Assembly: GCA_041650835.1 (NCBI GenBank) | Contig: JBAZKL010000003.1 | Coordinates: forward strand, 227,682 to 291,681 | Origin: Candidatus Omnitrophota bacterium | GTDB taxonomy: Bacteria; Omnitrophota; Gorgyraeia; Gygaellales; Profunditerraquicolaceae | Direction: 5' to 3' | Length of the DNA: 64,000 bases | Shown: in pieces, positions 18,386 through 58,824 of the stretch | Position numbering within the stretch: the first letter of the stretch is position 1 | How the letters are laid out: each line of letters opens with the position of its first letter | The notes under the pieces: generated by a model | The model's database searches: none | Told to the model about the DNA's origin: nothing | Seen by the model: only the letters and a program-made list of their open reading frames with translations | Made by a program: the position numbers and the translations under genes

Positions 18386-18748
18386 TCAAGAGTTAAGATT
18401 ATGTAAAAGCTTACTAAGGATTTTAATAACTTCGATATTTTGCTCTTCTATAACCCTTAATGCATCTTTATCAGCGCCAATACTTTTAGAATCTTTTAAA
18501 ATCTGGAGCCAATTGTCAAGTTCGTAACTTGAACTAAGCGCTATTTCAAAATAGCTTCTTTTTTTATTAATCGAGCTAACTGCATTGCCTTCAGCAATAT
18601 TTGCTCCGACTGAAGTTGCTGAACTGGTACATTGTACCACAATCCTTGAATATTTAAAGTCAATTTTTTCGACCAACTCAATGATCTTAAGAGCATTATC
18701 ATGGGCTTTTTGCCATGCAATCAACTTTCTATAAGTAGGCTCCCCCAT
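18386..18748 (-). CDS. four-helix-bundle protein (TIGR02436-like, 23S rRNA intervening-sequence protein family)
   Basis: 120 aa; YRKLIAWQKAHDNALKIIEL N-terminus typical of family; AT-rich gene flanked by two tRNAs. Confidence 0.6.
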   Translation of the reverse strand: MGEPTYRKLIAWQKAHDNALKIIELVEKIDFKYSRIVVQCTSSATSVGANIAEGNAVSSINKKRSYFEIALSSSYELDNWLQILKDSKSIGADKDALRVIEEQNIEVIKILSKLLHNLNS

Positions 18749-18787
18749 ACTCTATATTCTTGACTCTATATTCTTGATTCTGAATTA

Positions 18788-28749: not shown

Positions 28750-29607
28750 TCACCATTTTACAGCGCCTGAATCAAACACCGGGCCGTCTTTACAGACGCG
28801 CTTATATCCATCGGTAGTCTTGACCACGCACCCTAAACAAGCGCCGATACCGCAAGCCATATGCTCCTCTAACGACAGCTGCGCGGGGATATTTTTCTCA
28901 CCTGCAATACGGCTTACTTCTTTTAACATCGGCTGAGGGCCGCAGGCATAGAGAGTCGACGGTCGATGGTCAATGGTCGATAGTACGGTATCAAGCAAAT
29001 CAGTAACGTATCCTTTATGCCCTAGAGAACCGTCGTCAGTAGAGATCTTCACCTCATGCCCTGATTTCTCGAATTCATTTTTGCAAAGAATTTGTTTTCT
29101 TGTTTTACCACCGATCAAAACAATTCCCTTGAAACGTTCGGCCTGCAGCCTGCGGCCGGCGGCTGATAATTGTTCCGCCAGGAAAACAAGCGGGGCCACT
29201 CCCATACCTCCCGCCACTAATATCGGGTACCGGGCATTATCTATCGTGAAACCGTTGCCTAAAGGACCAAGGATATCGCAAGAATCTCCGGGCTTTTTTT
29301 CTGCTAACGCTGCCGTACCCTTGCCGCGGATCTCATACAGAATGGTCACGGTTGTCGGTGATCGGTGATCGGTGATCGATTTTCGGCCAGCAGGGTCACC
29401 GAGTACCGAATGAATTCCGAAGGGCCTGCGTAATAACGGCGAACCGCTCTCGGAAACCTGAACTTCTAAAAATTGACCGGGGACAGCCTTCGCCGCGATC
29501 CGGGCAGATAAAAGGGACATTCTATAATAATCCTGCCCCGCCGGCGCGTTACTTATTACCCGGGCTTTTTCCTGGAACATCTTTTTCTTCATGGTCATTT
29601 CTGGCAT
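28750..29607 (-). CDS. pyrK: dihydroorotate dehydrogenase electron-transfer subunit (FAD/2Fe-2S) carrying two in-frame short-repeat insertions
   Basis: 285 aa; RPFGIHS, C-terminal CGIGACLGCV Fe-S motif; insert SITDHRSPTT encoded by (GGTGATC)x3 at 29355-29380 and STIDHRPSTL encoded by GACCAT-type repeats at 28945-28973. Confidence 0.85.
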   Translation of the reverse strand: MPEMTMKKKMFQEKARVISNAPAGQDYYRMSLLSARIAAKAVPGQFLEVQVSESGSPLLRRPFGIHSVLGDPAGRKSITDHRSPTTVTILYEIRGKGTAALAEKKPGDSCDILGPLGNGFTIDNARYPILVAGGMGVAPLVFLAEQLSAAGRRLQAERFKGIVLIGGKTRKQILCKNEFEKSGHEVKISTDDGSLGHKGYVTDLLDTVLSTIDHRPSTLYACGPQPMLKEVSRIAGEKNIPAQLSLEEHMACGIGACLGCVVKTTDGYKRVCKDGPVFDSGAVKW

Positions 29608-30949: not shown

Positions 30950-30983
30950 GGACCAACCTTGACCATAGACCATCGACCATGGA
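30950..30983. repeat. tandem NGACCAT heptamer repeats immediately 3' of carB
   Basis: GGACCAACCTTGACCATAGACCATCGACCATGGAC. Confidence 0.6.
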
Positions 30984-32642
30984 CTACTTGCGTCTTGCGT
31001 CGAGTGACTTGCGGCTTACGGCTTTTCTACCCTGAGCTTGCCGAAAGGTGGCTATCCCCTGATATTCCTGGATCGACTTAACATCCAGATCTTTTTTAAC
31101 CAGGACCTCGATCGCGTTGACAGTCGCCTGCGCCCCGGAAATCGTAGTAGTATAAGCGATATTGTAGGTAATGACACAGGAGCGGATCTTAACTTCATCC
31201 TGACGGGGCATCCTGCCCGAAGGGGTATTGATCACCATTTGGATCTTGCCGTCTTTCATCAGGTCAAGCACATTCGGCCTGCCTTCGGCGATCTTCGGCA
31301 GGATATTCACCGCGATATCGTTGCGTTTGAGCACTGCCGCTGTCCCGGAAGTCGAATATATATTAAACTTCAGGTCCTGCAGTTTTTTCGCGATAGAAAC
31401 TATCGAACGCTTATCTTTATCCCTGACGGAAATAAAAACATTTCCGCTGCGGGGGAGCTTTTGCCCCGCGGCGAGCTGGCTCTTAACAAACGCCCTGCCG
31501 AAATCAACGTCGATCCCCATGACCTCTCCGGTTGATTTCATTTCCGGGCCCAAAATAACATCTACTCCCGGGAAGCGGTTAAACGGGAAGACGGATTCTT
31601 TTACCGCGACATGTTGCGGAACGGGCTCACGGGTAAAGCCTAAATCCTTCAATTTCTGCCCCAGCATGACCTTGGTTGCCAGCTTTGCCAGCGGCACACC
31701 AATCACCTTAGAAACAAACGGGACAGTCCGTGAAGCGCGAGGATTGACTTCTAAGACATAAACTTTATCGTCTTTGATAGCGTATTGCACATTCATAAGC
31801 CCTAAGACACGCAGCTCCCGGGCCATCTTGCAGGTAGCTTCCCTGACCTTATCCAGCAGCTCTTTGGACAGGGTATATGTCGGAAGAGTCATCGCGGAAT
31901 CCCCCGAATGGATCCCGGCTTCTTCAATATGCTCCATGATCCCTCCGATAACAAAGTCCTCTGCGTCACCGATCAAATCCACATCGACCTCGATCGCATC
32001 TTCCAGGAATTTATCTATTAACACGGGGTGGTCGCCGGAAACACGGGCAGCCTCAACGATAAACTTTTCCAGCATACTTTCTTCATAAACGATCTCCATT
32101 GCCCGCCCGCCCAGGACATAGGAAGGCCTGACCAGGACCGGGAATCCGATCTTCCGCGCCACGGAAAGCGCTTCTTCATAATTAAACGCCGTACCGTTCT
32201 CCGGCTGTAAAAGATCCAGCTTTTCAAGCATCTGCTTAAATCTTTTTCTGTCTTCTGCTATGTCAATGGCGTCGGCACTGGTCCCGAGGATATTGACCCC
32301 TGCCTTACGCAGCGGTAGCGCTAAATTAAGAGGCGTCTGTCCGCCGAACTGAACGATCACCCCCATCGGTTTTTCCGCTTCGAGGATAGTCATAATATCT
32401 TCAAAGGTAAGCGGCTCAAAATAAAGGCGGTCTGAAGTATCGTAATCGGTCGATACGGTTTCGGGATTACAATTAACCATGATGCTATCGACACCCTCTT
32501 CCCGCAGCGCGTAAGCGGCATGGCAGCAGCAATAATCAAATTCGATCCCCTGGCCGATACGATTCGGCCCGCCGCCTAAGATCACAACCTTCTTTTTGGG
32601 GGTATCGTTTAATCCTTTATTATTTTTATATTGATCCTGCAC
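30984..32642 (-). CDS. carB: carbamoyl-phosphate synthase large subunit, C-terminal half only (split CarB: second ATP-grasp + MGS-like domain)
   Basis: 552 aa beginning [32 protein letters not shown]...[23 protein letters not shown], which aligns to residues ~550 onward of canonical 1070-aa CarB; no N-terminal half is adjacent. Confidence 0.85.
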
Positions 32643-32867: not shown

Positions 32868-34109
32868 TTAAAACAAACTTAACTGCTGATCATGGCTTTC
32901 CTGATTCGAATCTTGCTCGCCGAAAATCGAGATAATGCCATACTCTCCGTCATAACCTGCCTTGATATTTACTTTTCCTTCACGCACCCGTAACACCCCT
33001 TCGGCAATGCGTTTAGGCAGGCCTCTTTGCAGGTCTTCCCCGGAAGCTCTCAACAATATATCGAATTCCGTCCCGAATTTTGCCACCAGGCTCATATATT
33101 CACGCTCGACAGAAACAGCGCCTTTAGCTACCCCTTTTGCCTCCGCGATGATCTCATCGAACGGGATCATGCGCTTAAAGGGAACGCTTGTTTCCGGCAC
33201 AATCCCTTCCGGCCGGTCCGCGAGCTGCGCGACGCGATTCATTACCCCGACCGTCACCGGCTTGCCGCATTTCGGGCACTTGCCGTTATTCTTTTTAGTC
33301 TCTTGCGGCGACAAACGGCTTTCGCACAGGCGATGCCCGTCATAATGATACTTGCCTTCTTCCGGGAAAAATTCTATCGTGTATAAAAACCTTTTATTAT
33401 CTTTAGTCCTCAAGACATCGCGGATCGTTCTATAATCCAGTTCGCAGTTAAAAACATTTGCCTCACGGCCTATTCTTTGAGGAGAATGTGAATCGCTGTT
33501 GGATACCAGGCTGAAGCGGTCTAAAGCGCTCAACCTCCAATTCATCGCCGGGTCACTCGACAATCCCGTCTCCAGCGCGAATATTTTCGGCGTCTGGGCC
33601 TCAAAACAATCCTCTATCCGGTCGAATCCCGACATAGAGCCGAATACTGAAAACCAGGGAGTCCAGATATGCCCGGGAATAACCATGCAATTTTCATCGA
33701 TATCAAAAACAATGCGCGCCAATTCAGCCGCATCCAATCCCAGGATCGGACGGCCGTCGGATGCCAGGTTCCCGCAGCGGGAAAGCACCTCATTGATCTT
33801 ATCGGTTGTTTTAAACGAAGGGCTCAGCACTATATTATGGACCCGATAAGTCCGGCCGTTCTTGGAATAGATACTGCTTATCTCCGATGATAAAATAAAA
33901 TAGATACCGTTATATTTAAAAAGCCCGTTTCCCAGGTCTTCAAGCTTATTCTTGAGCTCCTCCAGCCACAAGTGATAGGTAAAATCACCTGTCCCCATCA
34001 ACGTAATACCCTTAAGCTTGGCCCATTGCGCGATATGCTCAACATCCATATTGCGGCTGGTGGCCCGGCTGTATTTAGAGTGAATATGAAAATCAGCGAT
34101 AAACTCCAT
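32868..34109 (-). CDS. endonuclease Q-like PHP-domain nuclease with C-terminal zinc ribbon
   Basis: 413 aa; ADFHIHSKYSRATS, GTGD, GHIWTPW, SNSDSHSP, CPKCG motifs match archaeal/bacterial EndoQ signature blocks (recalled from memory, not aligned). Confidence 0.75.
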   Translation of the reverse strand: MEFIADFHIHSKYSRATSRNMDVEHIAQWAKLKGITLMGTGDFTYHLWLEELKNKLEDLGNGLFKYNGIYFILSSEISSIYSKNGRTYRVHNIVLSPSFKTTDKINEVLSRCGNLASDGRPILGLDAAELARIVFDIDENCMVIPGHIWTPWFSVFGSMSGFDRIEDCFEAQTPKIFALETGLSSDPAMNWRLSALDRFSLVSNSDSHSPQRIGREANVFNCELDYRTIRDVLRTKDNKRFLYTIEFFPEEGKYHYDGHRLCESRLSPQETKKNNGKCPKCGKPVTVGVMNRVAQLADRPEGIVPETSVPFKRMIPFDEIIAEAKGVAKGAVSVEREYMSLVAKFGTEFDILLRASGEDLQRGLPKRIAEGVLRVREGKVNIKAGYDGEYGIISIFGEQDSNQESHDQQLSLF

Positions 34110-34196
34110 AATCGTTATTATCGTTAGGTTCGTTAGTGCCGTTAGTTTCGTTCAACGGATTAAACGAATTTAACGGCACTAACGATATTAACGAAA
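34110..34196. repeat. tandem TAACGA(N2) octamer repeats forming the entire 87-bp spacer between Mut7-C stop and endoQ start; internally palindromic
   Basis: Minus-strand reading ...AACGAAACTAACGGCACTAACGAACCTAACGATAATAACGATT-ATG; related arrays precede pyrR (37448-37490) and rsmI (47755-47820). Confidence 0.7.
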
Positions 34197-34649
34197 CTAA
34201 CCTAATATCTCTTTTAATACACTATTTACATTTCCCCAATGTGTCCCCTGCCAATATACCCGCGAGCATTTTTCACAGATAAAAAACTTCTCTTGGGTTT
34301 GAAAAACATATTCAGGGACAAGGGCTTTTACCTCTGCTTTAACTTTAGGCTTTAAGGCCGTATTGCAGAGCGTACACCTGGTAAACATCATACCAGAAAC
34401 CGGCTCAATACTCAATGTTTTTAACAGCTCCGCGAGCTGTTCTTTAACCCGCTCATTTTTGATAACTACGGTCCTTAACCCTCTTGATGGCGCACGTTGA
34501 CGGGTCCGCGTGACAATGATCCTGCCGTCTTGTAACGCCCGGAGCATTAAAGAAGCTCTCTTATCGCCCAAAAAACATTGCGTATCGTAACCTAAGATTC
34601 TTAACCACGTTACAAGCCTGCCTAATTCTTTGGTCAGAATGAATTTCAT
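34197..34649 (-). CDS. Mut7-C RNase domain protein (PIN-like + C-terminal zinc ribbon)
   Basis: 150 aa; CTLCNTAL...CEKC zinc ribbon and N-terminal PIN-like segment. Confidence 0.65.
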   Translation of the reverse strand: MKFILTKELGRLVTWLRILGYDTQCFLGDKRASLMLRALQDGRIIVTRTRQRAPSRGLRTVVIKNERVKEQLAELLKTLSIEPVSGMMFTRCTLCNTALKPKVKAEVKALVPEYVFQTQEKFFICEKCSRVYWQGTHWGNVNSVLKEILG

Positions 34650-36907: not shown

Positions 36908-37490
<583 letters not shown>

Positions 37491-37870
37491 ATCCCTCGCG
37501 CACACGCTTGCACGCTTCGGGATATTTCGGCCATACAACTTACGTTCGCTTACGCTCCGTGCTGCTCCGCTTCCCTCGCGTTAACGCTTGAAAATTTCTG
37601 CGAAATTTTCTGCGCACGCTTCGGGATTAATTCGCAGACGGCCTTCGGCCTACACTTTACGTTCGCTTACGCTCCGTAAAGTGTCTGCTCATTAAAAAAA
37701 AACCCAACGGCTTATTATGCGGTTGGGATATGATTTTTTAAGGTCGTGAAGCATTTTTCTCTACCTTGCCGGCTTCTCATGAGCCAGCTTAAAGGCCTCT
37801 TTGTATTTAAATAAATATACCACCTCCGGGGGCGTTTGTCAAGGTAAATGACAAGGATGAGGATGACGGA

Positions 37871-38116: not shown

Positions 38117-41100
38117 TTATTCTATTATCAACGGCTCCTTAGCCGTAAAAGCGATCCTCGCAAGAGCAACCTGCAGGTCGCCCGCCGGCTTATCCGATTC
38201 CAACAAAGCCAGGAATTCCCTGAAAGCCGCTTCTGTAGGCTTAAGCTGATCCTCTTCTAACCGCAAGATATCCGCGATACAGGAAAGTACTTTATCTACC
38301 TGCGGATTAATATCGCCTTTAACGCAGCAAGCCTGCAAATATTCCTTGATCCTGTCGCTGGCAGGAATGATCCCCGCCTGGATCATGCCCTGTATCTGCT
38401 GCCATTCTTCATCGAGATCAATATTTTCCAGGCGGTTCAAAGGCGGCATAACGCTCATTCCGGGAGTATTCATCGGCTGCGTGACAATAGGGAGTGAGCG
38501 CATATCAATACCTCCCTTTTTAATCGGGCTTGAAGATCGCGGCTGTGCCGCACTTTCAGAAGCCGCTACGGCAGTATCGAGTTGCGCCGCTATCGGGCCG
38601 AAAGACCCGTCATTTGCATTGACGATAATAGATGGCGGCTCATTATCCGGCTTTACGTTTATTCTTCCGATGAGCATATACGGTGCTGACAACTTTAAAT
38701 TAGAGAAATCCCCCCATTGATTACTTAAAAATTCAAAAACATTCGGGAATATTTGATCATTTTCTAACGCCCCGCTGTCCCGTAATTGGGATGTCAATTG
38801 ATTGCAAGCTTTTGCTGTCATTGAACCAACCATGGAATAAAAAATATTCCATTTAGCGGCTACTTGAACTTTATCCTCGGCCTCATCCACTTCACGCGGA
38901 TTATCAACATATATGCCTATATCAATATCGCTGAATTCCGAATCATTGCTCCCTTTAATAGCTTTATCTTTAAGCCTGCCTCCGGTCATATAGATCCTTA
39001 TTTCTCCGGGGCGTTGAACACCTATGCTTATAAGATACTTCTGCGCTTCTTGCGCGATCAACTGCCCGGCCCTCAATAAATGATCGCCGCTAAAAACTGT
39101 AACAAAGCTGCGGGAGGAGTTCCTGACTACCGGATCGGAGGAATCCATCTGCTTCCGGGTGAACTCGAGCATATCCTGTATCCTGGTCTTCACCGCCGCC
39201 TCTTCCTCGGGAGTTACCCCTTCAAGAAATTCAGCATCTCCCGTATTTGCCATCGGGCTGCTGCTATGAACGCTATCGGTACGGAACATGGTAAACATAG
39301 TCCGCTTCGAGGCGTCGACATCCCAATCATCGACAATAAGCTGTATGACTTTAAGCCCGGGGACAAAGAATTTCCGGCTATCCACTGTATTAGCGATCAG
39401 GGCGATCCCGACATGCGACAAATGCCCCTCTATGCCGGACAAAAGGCGCTTATAATCGGTGTCGCCTATTTCATGAGCTCCGTCAAACTTGACCTGAGCA
39501 TCATAGACCGTATTAGGAGAATTAAAATAGACGAAATCATATTCACCGGAGAGCATGTCGAATTCCCTGCCGCGCTCGACTTTATGCACGAAAACTTCCG
39601 AATTCCTGCTCCCGGGAAAAAGCAGGTCAAGGTTAAACACCGTATTATCCACCGCTTCTTGAAGTATATCGATAGTGTCCAGATGGATCTTTAAATTATT
39701 GGATCTTGCCCAGGCATACGCCGTTAATACATCGACCCCGGTCCCTGAACCGATAACTAACACCCGGATATCGTCTCTGCCCGCAGCCCGTAAGTGCCGG
39801 GCGACAGCAGCCATCGCCCGGGGGCTTTGGATGAACCTGGAAGAATGTAAAGAAAGCCCGTAATCATTGACCGGAGAATATACCGCTTTATCGCGCGCGA
39901 TCACGCCTTTACCGGTCAGGGTCATTAAAAGGCGGTAGGCCTCAAGGTCATTTACTCCTCCGACGACCTGATAGCCGTTTTCATCTATTATTTTTTCCAA
40001 AGCAAGGATCTCCTGCTTTACCTGCCCCACCGGCCGGCGAAGGATCCTGCTCACATAGCCTGAGGCGATCGGCGAGCCGGCGGAACGGGTAGAAAAACGC
40101 TTTGCCCTCCTGAGCCATTCGGAAGGCTTCTTTTGATCATTCCCGTCGAGAACTTCCACAATTGCGGAATCTTTTGAATGCACCAGCAGGATATCACCCT
40201 GGCTGCCAAGCGCCTGCAGAAAGAGGTCCCCTTGCGCTGCTTTTTGCAATTGCTCTACGCCCAAATGTATCCCCGGAACACCATTTTCCGAGATAAGGAG
40301 CGATCTTTTTCCTTGCGGATCCCAAGCTTTGAGCTTATCCACTGCCCAGGCAAAATCATCCATGGAATTGGTGTCGACGACATACCCCAGATTGCCCTGG
40401 GGAGCGGCTACCACAAAACCATAAGTAGCGACGGGGTGGCTTTTATGATTACGAAACACGATGGTGATGCCCAATCCTTTATCAACAAACTCTATCTCAT
40501 CAAAAGCGTTTTTCTCGAAAGCGTCTTCAACCGGCTCATTCGCCAATAAATCCCGCGCCCCTTGCCGGGACAAACTTTGAGCCTCCTCAAGAGGAACGCT
40601 CTCCCAGGCCTCTGCGCCAAGCAGGTAAGCCGCGATGACCTCGCTTAATTCATCTCTTACTTCCCTGGTCATAATCAAGTCGAACGCATTGATCTCTTTA
40701 TTGGCATTTCGCACGATAAAACCGATATCATTACCTCTCCCGTTCTTTATCGCTTCCTTTTTTGCTTCAGCATATTTCTCAATGATGAACTGCACAAAGC
40801 CGGCATTATGGTCGGCGTGATTATGCGTCAGTATCCAGCGCGCGGGAAGTAAATTCCTTTTTTTGAGATTCGCGTACGCTTCAAGAGAAGGATCAACAAA
40901 AATACTTTCTTTCCCGACATTAATAAGGAAATTGGTCACGTCTTCTTCCGACAAGGCGTCATGAACGCCCATGAACGTGACCGAAACTTTATCCGCGGGC
41001 CGCAGCTGATACTCCTGGAGCTGCTCCCGGGTAAAATCGCCTGTTTTATGGATATGTTCATCGGTTGAAGTATCGCGCTTACGGGAGGCGACAGCGCGGG

Positions 41101-44100
41101 CTTCCGCTATATCCCCGAGCCGCTCTACAAACTTATAATTTTCACCGTCCTTAACGACCTCAACCGCCACATCTATGCCGTCTTTACCTAAGACCGTGAA
41201 TTCACTCCTGTTTTCTAAATTAATAATATTATACGGATTGTCTTTCTCCAGCGCCACCGCGCTCATGAGCGAAGAAACAAAACCGTTACTTTTCTTAATA
41301 GCGACATCCAGGATCATCTGTACCGCTAAAGCTTCCCGCGCGTTATTGACGATAATATAGGTCGGCCTGACAGCCAAATCGCTCACCAGCCGGAACCCTT
41401 GAGCCCTTAACGACGCTTCTTCTTGTGGCATAGGCGCGATCTTCATAGCCTCATAAAACAGGTTACCAAAAACAACAAACTGCAGGTCAGCGCCGTCATA
41501 GCCCTCTCCAAATTGAGGAATAATGATCTGGGGGGTTTCTTGTATTTTGTTGGTAAAAGAGGTTAGGCCGTTTGCGACCAGAAGTTTTGAAACCGTAAGG
41601 CTCTGGCGCGACTCCCCCTCCGCCTTATTTTGCAGCGGCGAAGCGGAAGTTCCCGCTGATAGAGCAGAGCCGGCGGCAAAGGATGGCTGTTGCAATAAAG
41701 CTTCTTGATAATCTTTCAAACTTTGGATATCATCCTTAAGCATTTCTCTATCAGATGTATCTAACGAATCGCCAAACTCGCGGGATATCCTTGCCAACGC
41801 TTTCTCAAGCTTATCAATGACACGTTTAACCTGTTCGGCTTTTAAAAGTTCTCCTTGATACATTGCTTTTGGCGGCCAGCTGTTTTGGTCATATACAAAC
41901 AAAGGCTCAAGATATTCATTTTTTAATTCGCGTAACCTGCTGATCGCGACAATTGCTTTTTCTTTCTGCACAACATCTCGTTCAACGCTTTGTACCGTTT
42001 CAAGCCTCGGGGCGCTTCCGTAAATCGAAGACTTATCTCCCATGCTCAATAAACCAGGATTAAACGCCCATTCGTTATTCAATCCGGACGGATTATCCTT
42101 ACCAAATTCGCTAAAAGAAACAAACCCATCAAATGAAACGCTTAAACTGCCTCTTCCTGCGGGTAAAATCACTAACCCAACCTCGGATGAACTTTCAATT
42201 TCAGGCTCAAACTGGTCCGCAGCTGCGTCAATAATAAACCACTGAGCCCCCACTCTGAATAATCCATACGCATGATAACCCGGCTCTCCCTTATTTTTTC
42301 CCGTATTAAGCAAAACCGCGTTTTCTTTACCAAGGGCTTCCTGCAGCCACTGAATAACATCCCCGTTCCTGATCCAGCAGTCATAGCGCACCGCGCTGCC
42401 GACATCCCCATCTCTCGAATAAGCCTCTAATTTATCTTTTGTTTCTAATTTTTCTTTTACTGCCTTAAGCGCAGCCAATATCTTATCCAACGATAATTGA
42501 TCAATCCCTTTTAAAAGATCTCCCCAGCGCGCCATAAAATTATCCGGGGTAACCTTAACTCCCCGCAAAAAGTTCCCAAATGTTTGCCAATCAAGGGACG
42601 CCTCAGCAGCCTCAAAAGAAGCATTAACCGGCGAACCGGCAGAAACCTGGTTATCAACAGGGGAAGAAGCATTCTTTACGGCAAGATTGGAATAAACCGT
42701 ATCAAACAAACCGCCGGCATTAACAACGCTATCGACATATCCCGCGGGCGCCTTATCTGCCGGCTCGAACATGGCATCAATTGCCGAAGCAAGTTCGCGT
42801 ATGCTTTTTTTCAGTATTTCTCTTTCCTGAGATTGTATGGCATAAAAACCCTCCAATGCCTCAGCGATCGCCGCAGGGTCATCTTCGGCTTTCCCTGAGT
42901 CTTCAAGATAACCCTGGACATATTCTTCTTTTGTATGAGAGGCGTCGTAATCAAAAAATGAATACCCGATATCTTTTTCGGACAGCATTGTATCTCCCGC
43001 GTTATAGGTCTGCAGGAAATGATGGTCCGTAGTTACCGAATCACACACTTTATGGATTATTGCCAGCCCCGCGGCATACCGCGAAACAAAATCATCCAGG
43101 ATTATTTGGGCGGCGGTTTTTGAAGCACCTAGTGGCTGCCGCTGCTTTTCCAATACGGAGCATTTTTCCATAAAAAAGTCCTTAAAGCGCCAAAGCTCGG
43201 CGATCCGCCAGGGAGCGGCAGAGGCATAAACAAACAACCTCATGCGCCAGATATACGCATTCCAATCTCCCGAATAATCACCCGTACGAAAGGAGAGCTC
43301 CGGGAAATCCGAAAGCGGGACCAAAAACACGCCTGACGGCCCCTGCCCTTGGGTTACTTCCCAATACCCGCCCTTCTGCTGCGCCTGCCGTAAACGCAGA
43401 TCGCTGCTTAAATCTTCGTCGTTATTGCCGCTCTTATCTATCGAATCAATGATTATCTGCAGGGGGGAAATATTTAACGCGGGGGAGAAAAATATATCAT
43501 CGGCAACGACTTGCGCTTGGCCTTGTTCCCGAGCCGTCAGCCGCACTTTTTCTAAACCTTCCTGAAAGAGCCGGGCCTTCTCTGCCTGACGGATAACCTC
43601 CTCATTCATCACGCTTCCCTCGATCACATTATCGGCGTTTCTCTCGCGTAGCTCAAAGCGCACGCGCCCTTGCGTATTAGCGCCGCCGCCTTTAACGCTC
43701 ACGAATGGTTCACCGTCGCCTTCTTCATAGGGCGTGCTTTCTACGCGCTGCTGGAGGCCTCCCATCTTACTATATACCTGCAATGAAAAACAGAGCCCAT
43801 CGGCATACCCAAGGCCGGGAGGTATTTGATGGAGCCGTTTAAGCGCTTCAAAAAGCTTAGCGTTGCCTTGAATAATAACACTGCCGTCAGGCCCCTTAAA
43901 ATCAGAGATAGGAATGACCACGCCTTTTCGCACGGCGTCCCTGATCGCGGCGGTATTGTAATAATTCTCAACTTTCCCCAGGGTATAGATATTCTCGGGG
44001 ATCACCTCATGCCCGGCAATGATCAATTCTCTATAGGCCTGAGCGGAAACAACAGGGTCTTCGTTAGCGATCCGCGCGATAATTTCATTAAGTTTATCGA

Positions 44101-46507
44101 CCGTTTTACTGCCCAAAGGAGAAGACGCCTTTTCGGGTACCGACAGCGGTGAAGAACCCTTCTTTATTTTTGCCCCCGGCTTTGCCAAAGGCTTAACCGC
44201 GGCCTTTACCGGTTTTTTAACGGGCGCCTTGACGGAAGCCTTAACTGCTTTCGCGGCCGCGGGGCGCTTTGCCGCAACGGGAGCAACTTTCGCGGGAGAT
44301 TGTTTTGCCGGCGGCTTAACGGCATTATTTGCCGCCGCGGGGGGTTTCTGCTGAACAGAGGCCCCCCGCGCGTTCTTTAAACTCGCTTCAACTACGGTGC
44401 CGATAACAACATAATCACTGGTTTCCTTCGGGATCTTCTTGTTCCAGATGGTCCCAAAACCAGCGTTATAAACAGCCAAGCTCAGCTGTAAACGGGAAAG
44501 ATGCGGGAATTTTTTAATGAGGACATTAACATACCTTTGCACCCTGAAGCAGTAAATGGCCGCGCCTAATTCATAATGTGCTTTCGCGGGAAGTTTATCC
44601 ATCATCGCCCCGAAGGGATCTTGCTGTTGAGGGTTATTTTTCAGTTTTTTATATATATCGGCGTATTTTTGTAACGGCTTTAAAAGCTTATACGCTGACT
44701 TTTCCTCACTCGTCATTTTATTTTCTTTTTTCTCTTTATCATTCTTTTCTTTTTGTTCCAATTCATCTACGAACCTCATTAAGTCCCTGAAAGCTATTTC
44801 CCTGATCTGCATCAACCCCTTTGCCCCCTTGCCTGAGGTAGCGGTGAGGGACTGCGTTGAGTTTTCAATACCGGCAATGATCTCCAGATGCACAGGCTGT
44901 ACCTCTTGGTTGATCGCATTGCCTGACTTGCCTTTTTCTACCATATTCCTGAAAACTGCCCGGGCTTCATTCGGCAGCTTGCGGTTATTTACCATGCCGA
45001 TAACCGTTTGGGCCCTCTGCCGGGTGGCTATGTCCATTACGCTAAAGCTATTCGCGGGCAAAGCGGCAGCGCCTGACTGCGGCACGGGCCTTCTCAGTAT
45101 TTGATTATTTTTACCTGCCTGTTCGGCGATCGGCGCGGGAGAAAAAAGCACAGCGAGAAATAACCCGATCGCGGTAAGCTTTTTAAACTGATCGCCTATG
45201 TTTTCTAAAAATGTTTTTTGGCGTTTGTCAGGCGAACGGGAAATCGCGGAAGAACTCGCATTTGCTCCCTGAGGCGACGTATCGGGCTGTTCTATAAATA
45301 CAGGAACATCGCTTTTTAATTCAATTCGGGCCGATGGATCTTCCAATGTCCCGCCTTCCGCGAAAAATGATATGCCTTTATCATTGAAGCGGGCCAGAGG
45401 AGAACTGCCGGCGCGCGAATGCCCGACGATCGAAGACACCACAGGTGACGACGCTCCCGGGGCAGGCACCTGAAAATCGGTCAAATTCATCCCTCCGGAA
45501 AAGTAACTTCTGATCGATCGCCCCATAGGCGTAGCAACGGGGATCTTAAGATTATATTCTCCGTCTTTAAACGACCGCCGGTATTCATTAAAATAGGTGC
45601 TCTTTGACCAGGGGACCCGAGAAGACAACCCGTTTAAATTCTTTTTGTCGATCATCCAGGAATAAAGGCCGCCCTTGCCGTAAAAACGCGCTTTAAACCA
45701 TTGCGCCATGATCAATGAATAATATACCTGCCGCAAAGGCGCGTATCGTTTGGCTGTATTAACCTCTTTAGTGATTTTAGGAAGGATCTTTTCTCTGATA
45801 AGCGCTGAAGCGTATTCGTTTAAGGATTTAAGCCGTTCATCCTCAAAATTGTAAACGCTGGAGCCTTTGAGGTAATCCTGCTCCAGCATTACCTTAAGCG
45901 TTGCTTTATAGATATAGGCGTTATCGTCGGCCTCGCGGATAATGATCTCATGAGGGACGATCCACGGCCTGGTTAAGGTGGGAATGTTTATATTGTCCGC
46001 GCCTAAAAGTTCTTCCGCCTTTTTATATAATTTATCCCAGTATTCTTTTCCTTCGGGTGTTTCAGGCGAAGTATACTGCGCGGTATCCTTTTTAAGCTGC
46101 AGGTCCGCTTCCAGCAGTACCTTGCCGAGGTCGGTCCTCGCCAAAAAGGGGTCGATTATATTATCTTCGGCGTCCGGGCGTAAATTGACCCAGAATGAAT
46201 CATTAGGCAGGCTGATACCGATAAAGAAATAATTCAAAAGTGTTTTAGTCGTGTCTTCAAGGGAAGGCTTGTTTAAATTCCCGGCGTCGCCTTTATCCAG
46301 CAAAAGGTTAAAATTGTTATTCAGATTATCATACGAGAGGTAGCGTAAATGTAAGGGCCGGAATTTATCCTGAATAATTGAATTACGCAGCTGCGCGAAA
46401 TGGCCGGAAATATCCAACTGTCCGGAAACTTGCGCTAAACCGGTCTGCTCAAAGAAGAAACAAAAACAAAGCAAAAGCGAAATAAATTTAAATAATTTAT
46501 TTTTCAC
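38117..46507 (-). CDS. giant secreted multidomain protein (2796 aa): signal peptide; SLT lytic-transglycosylase domain; Ala/Pro/Lys-rich linker; Cys/His/Asp module; MBL-fold domain; NPPY-like SAM methyltransferase domain; Pol-beta-type nucleotidyltransferase domain
   Basis: Single uninterrupted frame. GLMQI (aa~564) and AVYNAG (aa~678) SLT motifs; PAKVAPVAAKRPAAAKAVKASVKAPVKKPVK linker (aa~715-800); YDCW...YHAYG...IIDAAAD (aa~1377-1427); THNHADH (aa~1895); VLVIGSGTGVDV + DFVYFNSPN (aa~2250-2332); TGGRL-x14-SDIDIGIYVD (aa~2508-2534). Confidence 0.8.
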   Translation of the reverse strand: MKNKLFKFISLLLCFCFFFEQTGLAQVSGQLDISGHFAQLRNSIIQDKFRPLHLRYLSYDNLNNNFNLLLDKGDAGNLNKPSLEDTTKTLLNYFFIGISLPNDSFWVNLRPDAEDNIIDPFLARTDLGKVLLEADLQLKKDTAQYTSPETPEGKEYWDKLYKKAEELLGADNINIPTLTRPWIVPHEIIIREADDNAYIYKATLKVMLEQDYLKGSSVYNFEDERLKSLNEYASALIREKILPKITKEVNTAKRYAPLRQVYYSLIMAQWFKARFYGKGGLYSWMIDKKNLNGLSSRVPWSKSTYFNEYRRSFKDGEYNLKIPVATPMGRSIRSYFSGGMNLTDFQVPAPGASSPVVSSIVGHSRAGSSPLARFNDKGISFFAEGGTLEDPSARIELKSDVPVFIEQPDTSPQGANASSSAISRSPDKRQKTFLENIGDQFKKLTAIGLFLAVLFSPAPIAEQAGKNNQILRRPVPQSGAAALPANSFSVMDIATRQRAQTVIGMVNNRKLPNEARAVFRNMVEKGKSGNAINQEVQPVHLEIIAGIENSTQSLTATSGKGAKGLMQIREIAFRDLMRFVDELEQKEKNDKEKKENKMTSEEKSAYKLLKPLQKYADIYKKLKNNPQQQDPFGAMMDKLPAKAHYELGAAIYCFRVQRYVNVLIKKFPHLSRLQLSLAVYNAGFGTIWNKKIPKETSDYVVIGTVVEASLKNARGASVQQKPPAAANNAVKPPAKQSPAKVAPVAAKRPAAAKAVKASVKAPVKKPVKAAVKPLAKPGAKIKKGSSPLSVPEKASSPLGSKTVDKLNEIIARIANEDPVVSAQAYRELIIAGHEVIPENIYTLGKVENYYNTAAIRDAVRKGVVIPISDFKGPDGSVIIQGNAKLFEALKRLHQIPPGLGYADGLCFSLQVYSKMGGLQQRVESTPYEEGDGEPFVSVKGGGANTQGRVRFELRERNADNVIEGSVMNEEVIRQAEKARLFQEGLEKVRLTAREQGQAQVVADDIFFSPALNISPLQIIIDSIDKSGNNDEDLSSDLRLRQAQQKGGYWEVTQGQGPSGVFLVPLSDFPELSFRTGDYSGDWNAYIWRMRLFVYASAAPWRIAELWRFKDFFMEKCSVLEKQRQPLGASKTAAQIILDDFVSRYAAGLAIIHKVCDSVTTDHHFLQTYNAGDTMLSEKDIGYSFFDYDASHTKEEYVQGYLEDSGKAEDDPAAIAEALEGFYAIQSQEREILKKSIRELASAIDAMFEPADKAPAGYVDSVVNAGGLFDTVYSNLAVKNASSPVDNQVSAGSPVNASFEAAEASLDWQTFGNFLRGVKVTPDNFMARWGDLLKGIDQLSLDKILAALKAVKEKLETKDKLEAYSRDGDVGSAVRYDCWIRNGDVIQWLQEALGKENAVLLNTGKNKGEPGYHAYGLFRVGAQWFIIDAAADQFEPEIESSSEVGLVILPAGRGSLSVSFDGFVSFSEFGKDNPSGLNNEWAFNPGLLSMGDKSSIYGSAPRLETVQSVERDVVQKEKAIVAISRLRELKNEYLEPLFVYDQNSWPPKAMYQGELLKAEQVKRVIDKLEKALARISREFGDSLDTSDREMLKDDIQSLKDYQEALLQQPSFAAGSALSAGTSASPLQNKAEGESRQSLTVSKLLVANGLTSFTNKIQETPQIIIPQFGEGYDGADLQFVVFGNLFYEAMKIAPMPQEEASLRAQGFRLVSDLAVRPTYIIVNNAREALAVQMILDVAIKKSNGFVSSLMSAVALEKDNPYNIINLENRSEFTVLGKDGIDVAVEVVKDGENYKFVERLGDIAEARAVASRKRDTSTDEHIHKTGDFTREQLQEYQLRPADKVSVTFMGVHDALSEEDVTNFLINVGKESIFVDPSLEAYANLKKRNLLPARWILTHNHADHNAGFVQFIIEKYAEAKKEAIKNGRGNDIGFIVRNANKEINAFDLIMTREVRDELSEVIAAYLLGAEAWESVPLEEAQSLSRQGARDLLANEPVEDAFEKNAFDEIEFVDKGLGITIVFRNHKSHPVATYGFVVAAPQGNLGYVVDTNSMDDFAWAVDKLKAWDPQGKRSLLISENGVPGIHLGVEQLQKAAQGDLFLQALGSQGDILLVHSKDSAIVEVLDGNDQKKPSEWLRRAKRFSTRSAGSPIASGYVSRILRRPVGQVKQEILALEKIIDENGYQVVGGVNDLEAYRLLMTLTGKGVIARDKAVYSPVNDYGLSLHSSRFIQSPRAMAAVARHLRAAGRDDIRVLVIGSGTGVDVLTAYAWARSNNLKIHLDTIDILQEAVDNTVFNLDLLFPGSRNSEVFVHKVERGREFDMLSGEYDFVYFNSPNTVYDAQVKFDGAHEIGDTDYKRLLSGIEGHLSHVGIALIANTVDSRKFFVPGLKVIQLIVDDWDVDASKRTMFTMFRTDSVHSSSPMANTGDAEFLEGVTPEEEAAVKTRIQDMLEFTRKQMDSSDPVVRNSSRSFVTVFSGDHLLRAGQLIAQEAQKYLISIGVQRPGEIRIYMTGGRLKDKAIKGSNDSEFSDIDIGIYVDNPREVDEAEDKVQVAAKWNIFYSMVGSMTAKACNQLTSQLRDSGALENDQIFPNVFEFLSNQWGDFSNLKLSAPYMLIGRINVKPDNEPPSIIVNANDGSFGPIAAQLDTAVAASESAAQPRSSSPIKKGGIDMRSLPIVTQPMNTPGMSVMPPLNRLENIDLDEEWQQIQGMIQAGIIPASDRIKEYLQACCVKGDINPQVDKVLSCIADILRLEEDQLKPTEAAFREFLALLESDKPAGDLQVALARIAFTAKEPLIIE

Positions 46508-47100: not shown

Positions 47101-47754
47101 TCAAATAATAACTACGAACTCGCCGCGGGGCCTTTGCAGGGTAAACTGTTCTAAAAGCGTGCTTGCCGGGCCGCGTTTTACCTCTTCGAACTTCTTTGTA
47201 AGTTCGCGCGCCAGGACTACCTCTTTTTCGCCGAAGATGTCCCGGATATCCGCAAGAGTCTTTAAAATACGGTGGCAGGATTCATAAAAAATGATCGTGC
47301 ACTCCAAAGCAGAAAGCTCTTTGAGCCGGTTATGGCGGGAAACCGATTTATTGGGAAGAAAACCTTCAAAAAAGAACCTATGGCTGGGCTTGCCGGAAAG
47401 TACCAGCGCGTTAACAAAAGCCGTAGGACCGGGGATACAGGTAATTTCTATATTATTCTCTAATGCCGCGTTAATGAGGTTATAACCGGGATCGAGGATA
47501 CCGGGAGTCCCGGCATCGCAGACCAGCGCGATATTTTTCCCGTCTCTGAGCAAACCAAGAAGATACTCGCCCTTAATGATCCGGTTATGCTGGTAATAGC
47601 TGGTGGTCGGGACATGGATATCATAATGATTAAGTAAAATTTTAGTGTGGCGGGTATCTTCGCAGGCGATCAGGTCGGCTGATTTTAAAACTTCCAGCGC
47701 GCGTAAAGTTATATCCTTGAGATTGCCTATGGGGGTAGAGACGATATAAAGCAT
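47101..47754 (-). CDS. rsmI: 16S rRNA (cytidine1402-2'-O)-methyltransferase
   Basis: 217 aa; MLYIVSTPIGNLKDIT...ACEDTRHT tetrapyrrole-methylase fold motifs. Confidence 0.8.
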   Translation of the reverse strand: MLYIVSTPIGNLKDITLRALEVLKSADLIACEDTRHTKILLNHYDIHVPTTSYYQHNRIIKGEYLLGLLRDGKNIALVCDAGTPGILDPGYNLINAALENNIEITCIPGPTAFVNALVLSGKPSHRFFFEGFLPNKSVSRHNRLKELSALECTIIFYESCHRILKTLADIRDIFGEKEVVLARELTKKFEEVKRGPASTLLEQFTLQRPRGEFVVII

Positions 47755-47820
47755 CGTTGTATTCGTTATTATCGTTAGTTTCGTTATTGTCGTTTAATTC
47801 GTTAAACGAAATTAACGATC
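47755..47820. repeat. TAACGA(N2) octamer repeat leader immediately 5' of rsmI start codon
   Basis: Minus-strand: ...TAACGAATTAAACGACAATAACGAAACTAACGATAATAACGAATACAACG-ATG. Confidence 0.7.
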
Positions 47821-49659
47821 TTATTCTACGGTGACTGACTTTGCCAGGTTACGCGGCTGGTCAACGTCACAACCACGCTTCACCGCGATATGGTAGGCGA
47901 TCAACTGCAACGGAAGCACCACCAGCAAGGGAGAAAACAATTCATTGCATTTGGGGATATAAACAACTTCCCTGGTCTGCAGCTTTATCTTGGTATCATT
48001 GCTGCTGGCAATAGCGATGATCTTTCCCTTGCGGGCGCGGATCTCCTGAAGGTTAGAGATCATCTTTTCATAGACATGAGAATCGATGGTAATACAGACA
48101 ACCGCGCGGTACTCATCAATGAGCGCGATAGGGCCGTGCTTCATTTCACCCGCGGCATAGCCTTCCGCGGGAATATAAGAAATCTCTTTCAACTTCAGCG
48201 CCCCTTCAAGCGCCGACGGAAAATTCACGTTCCTGCCTAAGAACAAAAACGAGCCGAAATGTGAATGCCGGCGGGCTAAAGCGGCAATAGCATTTTGGTT
48301 CTTCAAGATCTCTTCCTGCTGCCTGGGGATACGCCGCAATTCATCGATATATTTATTGCTCTTCTCCGCCGGCAGGATATTCCTGAGCTGCGCCAGATAG
48401 ATCGCGAACAGGTACAAAGCGGTCAATTGTGCGGTATACGCCTTGGTCGAAGCGACCCCGATCTCCGGCCCGGCATGGGTATACATTACGCCGTCGGATT
48501 CCCGGGTCAAGGTCGAGCCCAGGACATTGCATACGCATAAAACAGACGCGCCTAATTTTTTAGCCTGCCTGATGCCGGCCAGGGTATCGGCTGTTTCTCC
48601 CGACTGGCTGATAGCGACGACCAGCGTGTCCTCATCGATCAAAAGGTCGCGGTAGCGGAATTCGCTGGAAACATCGACGATCGTCGGGATCGCGCAGACG
48701 GATTCTAAAACATACTTTCCCACGAACCCCGCGTGGTACGCCGTCCCGCAGGCGACAATAGCGATATTCTTGATTTTTTTAAAGCGTTCCGCAGGGATCT
48801 TTAATTCTTCAAAATATACGCGGTTAGTATCCTTCTGGATGCGGGAATTGATCAAATTCTCGACGACGCGAGGCTGTTCATTAAGCTCCTTAAGCATAAA
48901 ATGCTTATATCCCTGCTTCTCCGCCTGGGTTATATCCCAGTTGATCTTAACCGGTTTTTTAACGACCTCTTTACCGTTCAAGTCGGAGATCTTATACGCG
49001 TCTTTCGTCAGGACGGCCACTTCGTTTTCTTCCAGAAAAATGATCTCATTGGTAGAATCCAGGATCGCGGGGACATCAGATGCAAAGAAATTCTCATTTT
49101 TACCCACGCCCAGGATCAACGGGCTTCCCAACCTGATGGCAACGAGCTTATCCGGCTCTTTGTTGCAAATGGCGACGATGGCAAAAGCCCCCTCCAGCCG
49201 GGCAACGGCTTTCTTGAGCGCCTCCTCCAAGCTGCAATTCTTTAGATATTTCTCTATTAAATGGACGATGACTTCCGTATCGGTCTGGCTTTTAAAGGAA
49301 TGTCCTTCTTTGATCAATTCGGCTTTGAGCTTCGCGTAATTTTCGATGATGCCGTTATGCACCACGGCTATCTCATTGCCGCAATCATTATGCGGATGCG
49401 CGTTGACCTGATTGGGCGCGCCGTGGGTCGCCCATCGCGTATGCGCGATACCAACGCTTCCGGAAAGCGATTTTTTATGGAGCAGCTTTTCCAGGGCGCT
49501 GATCTTACCGGGCGACTTGCGGATAGAAATGGCTTTCTTGCCGGACAAAAGCACAGCGATCCCGCTTGAGTCATACCCCCGGTACTCAAGCCGCTTTAAG
49601 CCGCTGATAAGCAGGGGTTGCGCCTGCCTTTCTCCAACATATCCGACTATTCCGCACAT
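47821..49659 (-). CDS. glmS: glutamine--fructose-6-phosphate aminotransferase (isomerising)
   Basis: 612 aa; N-terminal MCGIVGY (Cys2 nucleophile), two SIS domains. Confidence 0.95.
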   Translation of the reverse strand: MCGIVGYVGERQAQPLLISGLKRLEYRGYDSSGIAVLLSGKKAISIRKSPGKISALEKLLHKKSLSGSVGIAHTRWATHGAPNQVNAHPHNDCGNEIAVVHNGIIENYAKLKAELIKEGHSFKSQTDTEVIVHLIEKYLKNCSLEEALKKAVARLEGAFAIVAICNKEPDKLVAIRLGSPLILGVGKNENFFASDVPAILDSTNEIIFLEENEVAVLTKDAYKISDLNGKEVVKKPVKINWDITQAEKQGYKHFMLKELNEQPRVVENLINSRIQKDTNRVYFEELKIPAERFKKIKNIAIVACGTAYHAGFVGKYVLESVCAIPTIVDVSSEFRYRDLLIDEDTLVVAISQSGETADTLAGIRQAKKLGASVLCVCNVLGSTLTRESDGVMYTHAGPEIGVASTKAYTAQLTALYLFAIYLAQLRNILPAEKSNKYIDELRRIPRQQEEILKNQNAIAALARRHSHFGSFLFLGRNVNFPSALEGALKLKEISYIPAEGYAAGEMKHGPIALIDEYRAVVCITIDSHVYEKMISNLQEIRARKGKIIAIASSNDTKIKLQTREVVYIPKCNELFSPLLVVLPLQLIAYHIAVKRGCDVDQPRNLAKSVTVE

Positions 49660-58450: not shown

Positions 58451-58588
58451 ATGAAAAAACATCTTAAAACGCCGTCAAAGATTAAAGGGAAACGCTGTCA
58501 CGGTTTCCGTCAGAAAATGTCTTCCAAGGCAGGCAGGGACGTGCTTTCCCGCCGCCGAAGAAAAGGGAGAAAGAAACTCACGGTATAA
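58451..58588 (+). CDS. rpmH: 50S ribosomal protein L34
   Basis: 45-aa [48 protein letters not shown] (below ORF-track size cutoff). Confidence 0.9.
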
Positions 58589-58804: not shown

Positions 58805-58824
58805 AATTTTTCGGGAGAAACTTC

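Follow-up and report, generated by a model that had tools for sequence, protein, structure and literature searches.

What are the tandem TAACGA-type repeats that run into the start codons of three genes in an Omnitrophota genome, and how would ribosomes find these starts? The genes, an endonuclease Q (EndoQ) family gene, pyrR and rsmI, lie in a stretch of 64,000 nucleotides (hereafter the window) from Candidatus Omnitrophota bacterium (GenBank assembly GCA_041650835.1, contig JBAZKL010000003.1, positions 227,682 to 291,681 of the forward strand), and the repeats that precede them are named here A1, A2 and A3, respectively. A first-pass annotation had described them as a repeated cis-element that replaces the Shine-Dalgarno (SD) sequence, for example an operator array, a translational-enhancer leader or a small mobile repeat. 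We find that the arrays are insertions of phased 9-nt units, specific to one Omnitrophota sub-lineage, and we tentatively read them as a dispersed, slippage-prone repeat that is transcribed and serves as an SD-less leader, with hairpin-bridged coupling where it separates two genes.

Results

Three nonamer arrays run into start codons

The arrays occupy the minus strand, which is the mRNA sense of all genes there, and each of them runs into a start codon, the array ending 2 nt from the ATG in A1 and A2 and at -1 nt in A3 (Table 1). Tandem Repeats Finder assigns them a strict period of 9 nt (and 18), every unit consisting of a 6-nt core, [T/A]AACG[A/G], followed by exactly 3 variable, G-poor nucleotides. 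The octamer of the first-pass annotation, TAACGA followed by one to three variable nucleotides, has to be abandoned, as a pattern of 8-nt spacing has 0 matches in the window.

The occurrence of such arrays on the mRNA-sense strand and their ending at three start codons, as initially proposed, are real and non-random. Indeed, a two-unit pattern of 9-nt period, allowing up to 2 mismatches, has 24 matches where 4.9 are expected, a count that 0 of 100 shuffles reached, and 19 of the 24 lie inside the three arrays. All three fall within 14 kb, and none is present in the remaining ~70 kb of the 84 kb made up by the window and 10 kb beyond each end. Single TAACGA hexamers are barely enriched in the window (42 against 31 expected), and a motif of one and a half units upstream of dnaA, formerly listed as related, is therefore treated as chance.

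Among the 23 units of the window, AAC (positions 2–4) is invariant, G5 is found in 22, T1 in 17 and A6 in 20, and the three spacer positions are near-random, with a single G that belongs to an ATG. When the arrays of close relatives are included (57 units), the AACG-to-AACG spacing is 9 nt save in two cases (12 and 18 nt, both in locus L200), and no G occurs at spacer positions 7–8. The arrays are tandem runs of a unit between 5 and 11 nt that are longer than chance. Their units are neither identical nor uniformly decaying like those of simple-sequence repeats, AACG being kept in all but one unit position next to near-random spacers.

The architecture of the three arrays differs. A1 is a palindrome that occupies the entire mut7C–endoQ gap, as noted before; its inverted arm, which reads as UCGUUA-type in the mRNA and pairs with the start-proximal arm, even includes the Mut7-C stop codon (TAG, 34197–34199). 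A2 has neither an inverted arm nor an upstream open reading frame (ORF), and A3 combines a long sense arm with a short inverted one. A central motif, CCGTTAA(A/T)TTCGTTTAA, is common to A1, A3 and two loci of other genomes, L060 and L682. A1 and A3 are imperfect intergenic palindromes present in several homologous copies, as are REP/BIME- or MITE-like elements; A2 is not palindromic. The gene names that had been given, endoQ-like, pyrR and rsmI, agree with the domain matches and source names in Table 1.

Table 1. Arrays, their arms and the adjoining genes, in coordinates of the window; units are written in the sense of the strand given.
Feature	Coordinates	Strand	Description
A1	34110–34203	-	terminus ...TAACGATAATAACGATT-ATG of the 413-aa EndoQ-family gene
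A1 start-proximal arm	34110–34153	-	5 units, mRNA sense: GAACGAAAC TAACGGCAC TAACGAACC TAACGATAA TAACGATT, then directly the endoQ ATG
A1 inverted arm	34154–34203	+	CAACGGATT AAACGAATT TAACGGCAC TAACGATAT TAACGAAAC TAACCT; reads as TAACGA on the + strand
A2	37448–37491	-	pure direct array, 5 units: TAACGAAAC TAACGACAT TAACGAACT AAACGAAAA TAACGATC; adjoins the pyrR ATG (terminus ...AAACGAAAATAACGATC-ATG)
A3	47754–47820	-	terminus ...TAACGAATACAACG-ATG of rsmI (...CAACG-ATG); the final core base supplies the A of the start codon
A3 start-proximal arm	47754–47804	-	6 units: TAACGAATT AAACGACAA TAACGAAAC TAACGATAA TAACGAATA CAACGA
A3 short inverted arm	47804–47820	+	AAACGAAAT TAACGATC; begins 2 nt past the glmS stop codon (47821–47823)
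Endonuclease Q family gene (413 aa)	32868–34109	-	downstream of A1; PF27218; NCBI 'endonuclease Q family protein [Candidatus Omnitrophota bacterium]'
Mut7-C RNase-domain gene	34197–34649	-	upstream of A1
pyrR	36908–37447	-	downstream of A2; first gene of pyrR-pyrB-pyrC; PRTase/PyrR
Upstream pyrR leader	37694–37842	-	promoter, PyrR-binding-site-like element, hairpin and T-run terminator (37694–37727)
rsmI (16S rRNA C1402 2'-O-methyltransferase)	47101–47754	-	downstream of A3; TP_methylase/RsmI
glmS	47821–49659	-	upstream of A3

The arrays are insertions at gene junctions

The junctions were compared with those of 80 loci (805 kb; L120–L199) that encode EndoQ relatives of 55–82% identity. TAACGA arrays of at least 3 units are absent from this set, the one exception being L145, in which endoQ is preceded by what is left of a decayed array of 3 units. 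Many of the 80 relatives have a TAATG in which the stop of Mut7-C runs into the start of endoQ, and 7 of 13 have a comparable overlap of the glmS stop with the start of rsmI (GAATAATG or GAGTAATG). Because starts overlap the upstream stop as TAATG in most relatives, endoQ and rsmI sit inside operons, so that the view of all three as operon-first genes holds for pyrR and fails for the other two. The comparison indicates that A1 and A3 split overlapping genes (mut7C/endoQ and glmS/rsmI) which were presumably translationally coupled before. The pyrR of relatives mostly starts 10–20 nt past an attenuator terminator, often with an SD-like GGAG; in the window, A2 together with about 200 nt of other repeats appears to have come between the PyrR attenuator and pyrR, displacing the SD. 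The repeated cis-element of the first-pass annotation thus stands in the place of the relatives' SD at pyrR and of their stop/start overlap at endoQ and rsmI. No clear target-site duplication is seen when filled and empty junctions are compared.

A copy outside orthologous positions points to dispersal. At the ribH/nusB junction of L060, from a metagenome-assembled genome (MAG) labelled Planctomycetales, a 107-nt stretch matches A1 with 82% identity, and the match extends into the flank GATATTAGGTTAGT. Since a non-orthologous junction holds an A1-like stretch with a shared flank, the copies are homologous and the element is dispersed. The suggestion of a small mobile repeat is supported, as far as dispersal goes, by this stretch, by the absence of arrays at 82% identity and below, and by unit numbers that vary among close strains.

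Mycobacterial MIRU, REP/BIME, Correia and Rickettsia RPE are small dispersed repeats. The arrays resemble MIRU in being inserted between operon genes, often at overlapping stop and start codons, REP and Correia in forming hairpins, and RPE in being tolerated in-frame within genes. They differ from all of these in their internal 9-nt periodicity with a conserved core, in being much shorter and in their hypervariability. A direct reading finds no ATG, GTG or TTG in the arrays and TAA in one frame, so that a bridging mini-ORF of the MIRU kind is rejected, and in contrast to REP no RAYT transposase was seen; the window holds no transposase, and the resemblance to elements of the REP or MITE type does not extend to one.

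Other repeats occur at the same junctions. In L129, L139, L144, L154 and L158 a recurrent element, CCGAGCGAAGCGAGG(GAA), stands directly before the endoQ ATG and supplies a GAGG SD; it is also found in reverse orientation (L158, ~11990). Between the attenuator terminator and A2, positions 37492–37690 (-) hold two direct repeats of ~65 nt (ACGGAGCGTAAGCGAACGTAA...CCCGAAGCGTGC...GCGAGGGA), a 45-nt block of which is 100% identical in L200, with similar pieces in L120 and L175.

Turnover and constraint among close relatives

A genome with a 92% identical EndoQ (L200 and L682) carries arrays at all three junctions, and gene-sense array ends near the ATG are found in L200, L682, L684 and L685. The three copies show different degrees of conservation. 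In L200 the last 37 nt of A2 before the pyrR ATG are identical at 37 of 37 positions, spacers included, where pyrR itself is 82% identical and its 4-fold degenerate sites 61%. Under the neutral rate such an identity would have a chance of ~1e-7, so that purifying selection acts on the A2 copy. In the A1 of L200, the 17 nt that adjoin the endoQ ATG are likewise identical and the central 37 nt of the palindrome are missing, the gap measuring 50 nt against 87 nt in the window.

A3 is hypervariable. Its antisense and sense units number 2+6 in the window, 6+6 in L685 (rsmI nucleotide identity 95%, 4-fold identity 92%), 5+7 in L684 (86% and 65%) and 1+3 in L682 (81% and 51%), giving totals of 8, 12, 12 and 4, and every spacer differs between strains. 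The L684 copy contains an 18-nt (CAT/ACA)x3 pattern that is typical of slippage. Constant across the orthologues are AACG, the 9-nt phase, the order inverted arm–sense arm–ATG and the fusion of the last core with the ATG. The copy-number variation between close strains that marks simple-sequence repeats is therefore present in the units of A3 and in the gap filled by A1. Point mutation alone cannot randomise the spacers and yet spare the cores, so that the core must be protected by selection or by the mechanism that generates the units.

A wider class of core-plus-spacer arrays

Loci of related Omnitrophota are rich in arrays of ~31–35 nt with a period of 7, less often 8 or 9, and many of the heptamer arrays consist of a 5-nt core and 2 variable nucleotides. 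Of the 25 arrays that vary, 12 do so only in two neighbouring columns; 5.9 such arrays would be expected, and none of 2000 simulations gave more than 11. These arrays occur as palindromic pairs before starts, as direct arrays before starts and in-frame in conserved enzymes (PyrK, Mur ligase), where the same loops carry different sequences across orthologues. The pyrK of the window (28750–29607, -; NAD_binding_1 / DHODB_Fe-S_bind) has three in-frame period-7 arrays, at 28955–28981 (GTCGATG x3.9), 29139–29163 (CGGCCTG x3.6) and 29355–29378 (TCGGTGA x3.4), and its orthologues in L140, L141, L149 and L200 have different heptamers at the same loops, often of exactly 33 nt.

The mut7C/endoQ and glmS/rsmI junctions of relatives also hold palindromic arrays of 5-nt-core, 2-nt-spacer heptamers with genome-specific cores (L125 6312–6373, L158 5130–5200, L154 2822–2886, L160 9964–9998), and L158 has a GTTACG+3 nonamer palindrome. 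All of the palindromic junction arrays of relatives give significant predicted hairpins that start right past the stop codon, for instance -24.9 kcal/mol (z -5.4) at the L125 endoQ junction, with a TGAACC core, and -36.5 kcal/mol (z -6.3) at the L158 rsmI junction, with an ACTATGG core.

Outside these relatives, we looked for three perfect TAACGA+3 units in 185,579 species genomes, where they occur at 117 loci or more. Many of the matches listed are coding repeats or perfect minisatellites; variable-spacer arrays occur among them in MAGs labelled Planctomycetota, Desulfobacterota, Proteobacteria, WOR-3, Omnitrophota and Parachlamydiaceae, and perfect TAACGAAGC arrays stand directly before start codons in Patescibacteria. 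In other genomes, again among the matches listed, arrays up to 40 nt upstream of ORFs of at least 100 codons are TAACGA-sense in 21 cases and antisense in 6. At L110 4399–4440 an array is read in another frame as a hydrophobic, signal-peptide-like LLTKLTIITILTILTN that forms the N-terminus of a secreted-type protein. Four loci that this TAACGA search brought up, from MAGs labelled Proteobacteria (L037), Desulfobacteraceae (L052), Pseudomonadota (L094) and Gammaproteobacteria (L096), contain in addition many other arrays of period 7 or 9 per 8 kb, including nine heptamer arrays in L037 and AAACGATCC x13 and x17 in L094; because such loci hold so many, array-rich genomes exist in several phyla.

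Two viral contigs (L476 and L507; IMG/VR 3300029831_000014 and 3300019835_000002; 17 kb, GC 0.59), which turned up through a control core pattern, carry period-9 AATCGA+NNN arrays, all gene-sense, each followed by an A-rich tract and lying 0–55 nt upstream of nearly every ORF. They have the appearance of an expression signal for each single gene that follows the same core-plus-spacer design.

An alternative explanation is that the arrays are functionless, a selfish or neutral simple-sequence or MITE-like insertion which arises by slippage, fold-back errors or a mobilising activity and persists where it is harmless, at intergenic junctions and in surface loops. The absence of arrays from relatives of 82% identity or less would fit such a repeat, as would the hypervariability of A3 at 95% nucleotide identity, the gain or loss of the A1 central palindrome between strains, the A1-like stretch in L060, the same architecture built from unrelated cores at the same junctions and elsewhere, and the in-frame arrays in PyrK, Mur ligase and YggS. 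Mazel and colleagues reportedly described, in 1990, short tandemly repeated repetitive (STRR) heptanucleotide sequences in cyanobacteria. Among the long simple-sequence repeats of 5–11-nt units studied by Mrazek et al. (2007), heptamers dominate and slippage is the proposed origin, according to the summary given in PMC4679880. The arrays share with both kinds the tandem short units, the mostly intergenic and genome-specific occurrence and the slippage-variable copy number, and related Omnitrophota and Desulfobacterota loci are full of ~33-nt arrays of 7-nt units; they differ in their non-identical units with conserved core and free spacers, in the presence of the same core at several loci and in one array being under selection. 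We regard a functionless insertion as rather unlikely, since A2 is identical where neutral sites have diverged to ~61%, AACG and the 9-nt phase outlast a complete turnover of spacers that uniform mutation could not saturate while sparing the cores, orientation near start codons is biased 21:6 among the matches listed, at rsmI the ATG is fused with the final core in every case, and rsmI and pyrR-pyrB-pyrC still need to be translated from these sequences.

Start regions, predicted structure and the pyrR leader

At -18 to -3, all three genes lack a run of at least four SD-core bases, in line with the initial description, and the 3' end of 16S rRNA is not known to offer a free UCGUUA for pairing with UAACGA. 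The predicted structures follow the presence of an inverted arm. A1 folds into a predicted hairpin of -43 kcal/mol (z -7.3), which supports the palindrome noticed at first reading, and A3 of the window into a weaker one (-13.2 kcal/mol, z -1.84); A2 is predicted to be unstructured, less structured even than its shuffles (z +1.27). In close relatives, predicted hairpins reach -12 kcal/mol (z -2.6) for A1 in L200, and -37.6 (z -4.5), -35.2 (z -4.4) and -11.6 kcal/mol (z -3.6) for A3 in L685, L684 and L682, respectively. The predicted stems begin 1–4 nt past the upstream stop, or include it, and finish 0–20 nt before the downstream AUG, which in L685 lies within the foot of the stem.

Several familiar functions were considered for the arrays and rejected. 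Their hairpins have no T-run and are not intrinsic terminators. A promoter within the arrays could be read into the GATAAT/GAAAAT that A1 and A2 carry 7 nt ahead of the start codon; a -35 element is missing, and a sigma-70 scan gives no match. At the gathering threshold Rfam 15 identifies tRNAs only, with nothing in the arrays, and at E<=1 it adds spurious miRNA models on A1 and a PyrR element upstream of A2, not inside it, so that neither threshold assigns the arrays to a known RNA family. Binding of PyrR to the array is rejected too, the PyrR-like element being a separate upstream hairpin.

The leader of pyrR would place A2 in a transcript. Upstream of A2 lie a sigma-70-like promoter (TTGACA-17-TATATT with TG, 37842–37814; 11/12 match) and a PyrR-binding-site-like element (RF00515, 33.9 bits, E 0.049), whose score is below the gathering score; such an element with a terminator also precedes pyrR in many relatives. 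As the promoter and a PyrR-type attenuator lie upstream, we infer that A2 is inside the 5' untranslated region (UTR) of the pyr operon and hence transcribed.

This position bears on the idea that the arrays act as double-stranded DNA, the TAACGA boxes being bound at 9-bp spacing by an oligomerising protein, for example of the ribbon-helix-helix (RHH), omega or ParG type, that represses or organises transcription. A2 follows the likely promoter at a distance of ~320 nt, within what is probably the 5' UTR, nothing resembling a promoter or a terminator was found in or beside A1 or A3, and the arrays meet the start codons with single-nucleotide precision, which is not required of a DNA operator. 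The operators of omega (heptads) and ParG (tetramer boxes) consist of conserved boxes in both orientations with free spacers, and the arrays, with cores conserved in both orientations, strict 9-bp phase, free spacers and clustering within 14 kb, do recall them; like the RHH arrays (omega heptads, ParG ACTC boxes, AT-rich spacers) they have contiguous boxes, direct and inverted, with a conserved core. They differ in being chromosomal and intercistronic, fused to start codons and biased in orientation relative to genes, and in having no adjacent promoter; neither the promoter overlap nor the adjacent small DNA-binding gene typical of an RHH operator was found, no small RHH or helix-turn-helix gene lying near the arrays. 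An all-against-all ORF comparison around 26 array loci found no protein common to more than three genomes, so that a linked mobile-element or regulator gene is rejected. With 4 to 12 units among close strains and different cores at the same junctions of relatives, an operator of this kind is improbable, and the first-pass proposal of an operator for one dedicated regulator is likewise hard to reconcile with the differing cores, the hypervariable A3 and the in-frame arrays in coding sequences.

At the RNA level, an oligomeric protein could bind the phased UAACGA repeats and block initiation on a metabolite signal. TRAP is the model for such a repressor, binding (G/U)AG repeats in Bacillus trp-regulon leaders (trpE, trpG, trpP, ycbK), and the parallel lies in short cores with 2–3-nt spacers, in 5–11 repeats, over the SD or start of several unlinked genes, with action at the RNA level. 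In the arrays, phased cores separated by variable spacers extend over the starts of three genes, two of which belong to the pyrimidine supercluster, and A2 is under purifying selection and predicted to be single-stranded. They differ in core, period (9 nt against 5–6 nt) and phylum, their unit number is unstable, and they stand in place of an SD instead of covering one. A protein of fixed oligomeric state would not match the unstable unit number of A3, the sense units of A1 and A3 are sequestered in predicted hairpins, and the window showed no member of the TRAP, HutP, CsrA or Csp families. Such a repressor would supply no positive route of initiation for the genes, and the 80 relatives lack the motif altogether; we consider it very unlikely.

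Neighbouring genes and other repeats in the window

The neighbourhood comprises Mut7-C, pyrC, pyrB, pyrR, a 2796-aa ORF, rsmI, glmS, gyrA, gyrB, dnaN and dnaA. The 2796-aa ORF (38117–46507, -), which lies between rsmI and pyrR, has no Pfam match, and its length must be strongly variable as its orthologues in close relatives measure 3728 and 4471 aa. A 920-bp non-coding gap (57903–58824) separates the divergent dnaA and yidC; gene orientation switches there, parA-parB follow at 60604–62302, and the gap is likely oriC. All three TAACGA arrays lie 10–24 kb to one side of it.

Two further repeats were noticed in the window. A 14-nt unit repeated 2.4 times (CAAGAATATAGAGT, gene sense; 18749–18781, -) adjoins the ATG of a gene of the '23S rRNA-intervening sequence protein' family (18386–18748, -), located between two tRNA genes, and a heptamer array (GACCATA, + strand, x3.4; 30961–30984) lies directly past the stop codon of a carB-like gene, within the 187-nt gap before yjbQ.

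Discussion

The explanation that we favour, tentatively, takes the three sites as copies of one dispersed, fast-evolving repeat of phased 9-nt units, which would be transcribed together with their operons. The UAACGA-reading arm would then be the whole ribosome-landing region of the downstream gene, and translation of that gene would start from a repeat leader rich in A and poor in G, with no SD pairing, because ribosomes have no sequence other than the sense arm to land on. At intercistronic sites the inverted arm may fold onto the sense arm and hold stop and start together, so that a terminating ribosome could open the stem and reinitiate, and coupling would be preserved; insertions of 40–110 nt would be tolerated at coupled junctions because the fold-back keeps stop and start adjacent. 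The number of units would change through replication slippage of 9- or 18-nt blocks, and the AACG core and the 9-nt phase would be kept by selection, most simply if they are read by a single-strand-binding initiation component or regulator. The conservation of A2 fits a copy that has become a constrained part of the leader, at least at pyrR. The translational leader put forward at first reading thus agrees with the position of A2 downstream of the PyrR attenuator, with the 21:6 bias among the matches listed and with the precedent of the TAACTGA repeats discussed below.

A number of observations weigh against this explanation. Because A1 and A3 fill formerly zero-length gaps, they necessarily touch both stop and start, which accounts for two of the three contacts with start codons; the argument that three independent occurrences at start codons speak against chance therefore stands as regards the non-randomness of the arrays and loses force as regards their position. 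An SD-core run is present in only about 15 of the 46 genes of the window and missing from some two thirds of them, so that its absence at the arrays is not special. Among the start regions of the same 46 genes pyrR ranks first in predicted accessibility, rsmI ranks 12 and endoQ 44, its start being predicted as buried, and an unstructured leader as a general rule is rejected, as it is true for pyrR only. The depletion of G in the spacers is seen in the unit's own orientation in both arms and is thus not simply a property of the mRNA-sense strand. TAACGA arrays also occur 3' of convergent genes, among the matches listed, and one lies in-frame within a YggS/PLPBP-family protein (L048 5465–5506), where it is translated as LNEINDINETNDNNA. 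Relatives have other cores at the same junctions (TGAACC, ACTATGG, CTGAAAG and others), with several cores per genome, which makes a universal sequence-specific reader for the whole class unlikely, and neither the window nor the ±10 kb around it revealed a candidate repeat-binding protein.

The closest known counterpart is the TAACTGA heptamer known from marine Beggiatoaceae, of which 169 sets of direct repeats were described in a 'Maribeggiatoa' genome (MacGregor 2015, Front Microbiol 6:1397; PMC4679880). These repeats are mostly forward-oriented and end ~1 nt before start codons, SD sequences are rare next to them, and they are predicted to be unstructured; they occur occasionally in ORFs and are also found in Cyanobacteria and Bacteroidetes, and their reading by S1, Csp or CsrA-like proteins, or a role in translational control, was proposed as a hypothesis only (PMC4679880). 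The three arrays share with them the forward orientation near a start codon and the absence of an SD. In both, short direct repeats (2–6 copies in the heptamers) run gene-sense and end within a few nucleotides of starts, the unit has one G, a canonical SD is mostly absent, the direct array is predicted to be unstructured, ORFs are occasionally overlapped or occupied, the distribution across phyla is patchy, and the cores are alike (TAAC-GA here, TAACTGA there). However, instead of a perfect heptamer the arrays have a nonamer unit made of a 6-nt core and 3 variable nucleotides, stop codons fall in one frame only, two of the three copies have an inverted arm and long predicted hairpins, two arrays lie at former stop/start overlaps, and 3 copies in 84 kb compare with 169 sets per genome. 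Tandem TAACTGA is absent from the window and from every fetched locus (6 Mb). The arrays are therefore a nonamer, core-plus-spacer, partly palindromic form of the start-codon-proximal repeat kind known from TAACTGA.

A bolder proposal is that phased AACG nonamers and their heptamer cousins (TAACTGA) constitute an alternative code for ribosome recruitment or start-site choice, read by a ribosomal component or by a dedicated factor that binds single strands, and spread by a self-propagating, slippage-prone repeat able to occupy stop/start junctions and 5' UTRs in several phyla (Omnitrophota, Desulfobacterota, CPR (candidate phyla radiation), Bacteroidota) and some phages. We hold this to be quite improbable.

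A full-text literature search on Omnitrophota/Omnitrophica repeats gave no description of these arrays, and the abundance of 7–9-nt arrays in Omnitrophota genomes appears to be undescribed. Core-plus-spacer arrays of 7 and 9 nt, including the in-frame ones within conserved enzymes, appear to be widespread in the genomes of Omnitrophota and of some other groups, and they matter for gene calling, start-site prediction and the interpretation of strain variation. Beyond what the TAACTGA study offers, the comparison of close strains adds datable insertions into overlapping stop and start codons, and it reveals arrays that turn over faster than synonymous sites while core, phase and ATG fusion persist, with one copy strongly constrained. 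The stop–hairpin–start geometry suggests how genomes may tolerate insertions of 40–110 nt between coupled genes. The phylum Omnitrophota is uncultured, and hardly any work has been devoted to its translation signals; if the repeat arm is a ribosome-landing site, it would be the second independent example, after TAACTGA, of starts that rely on a phased repeat instead of an SD.

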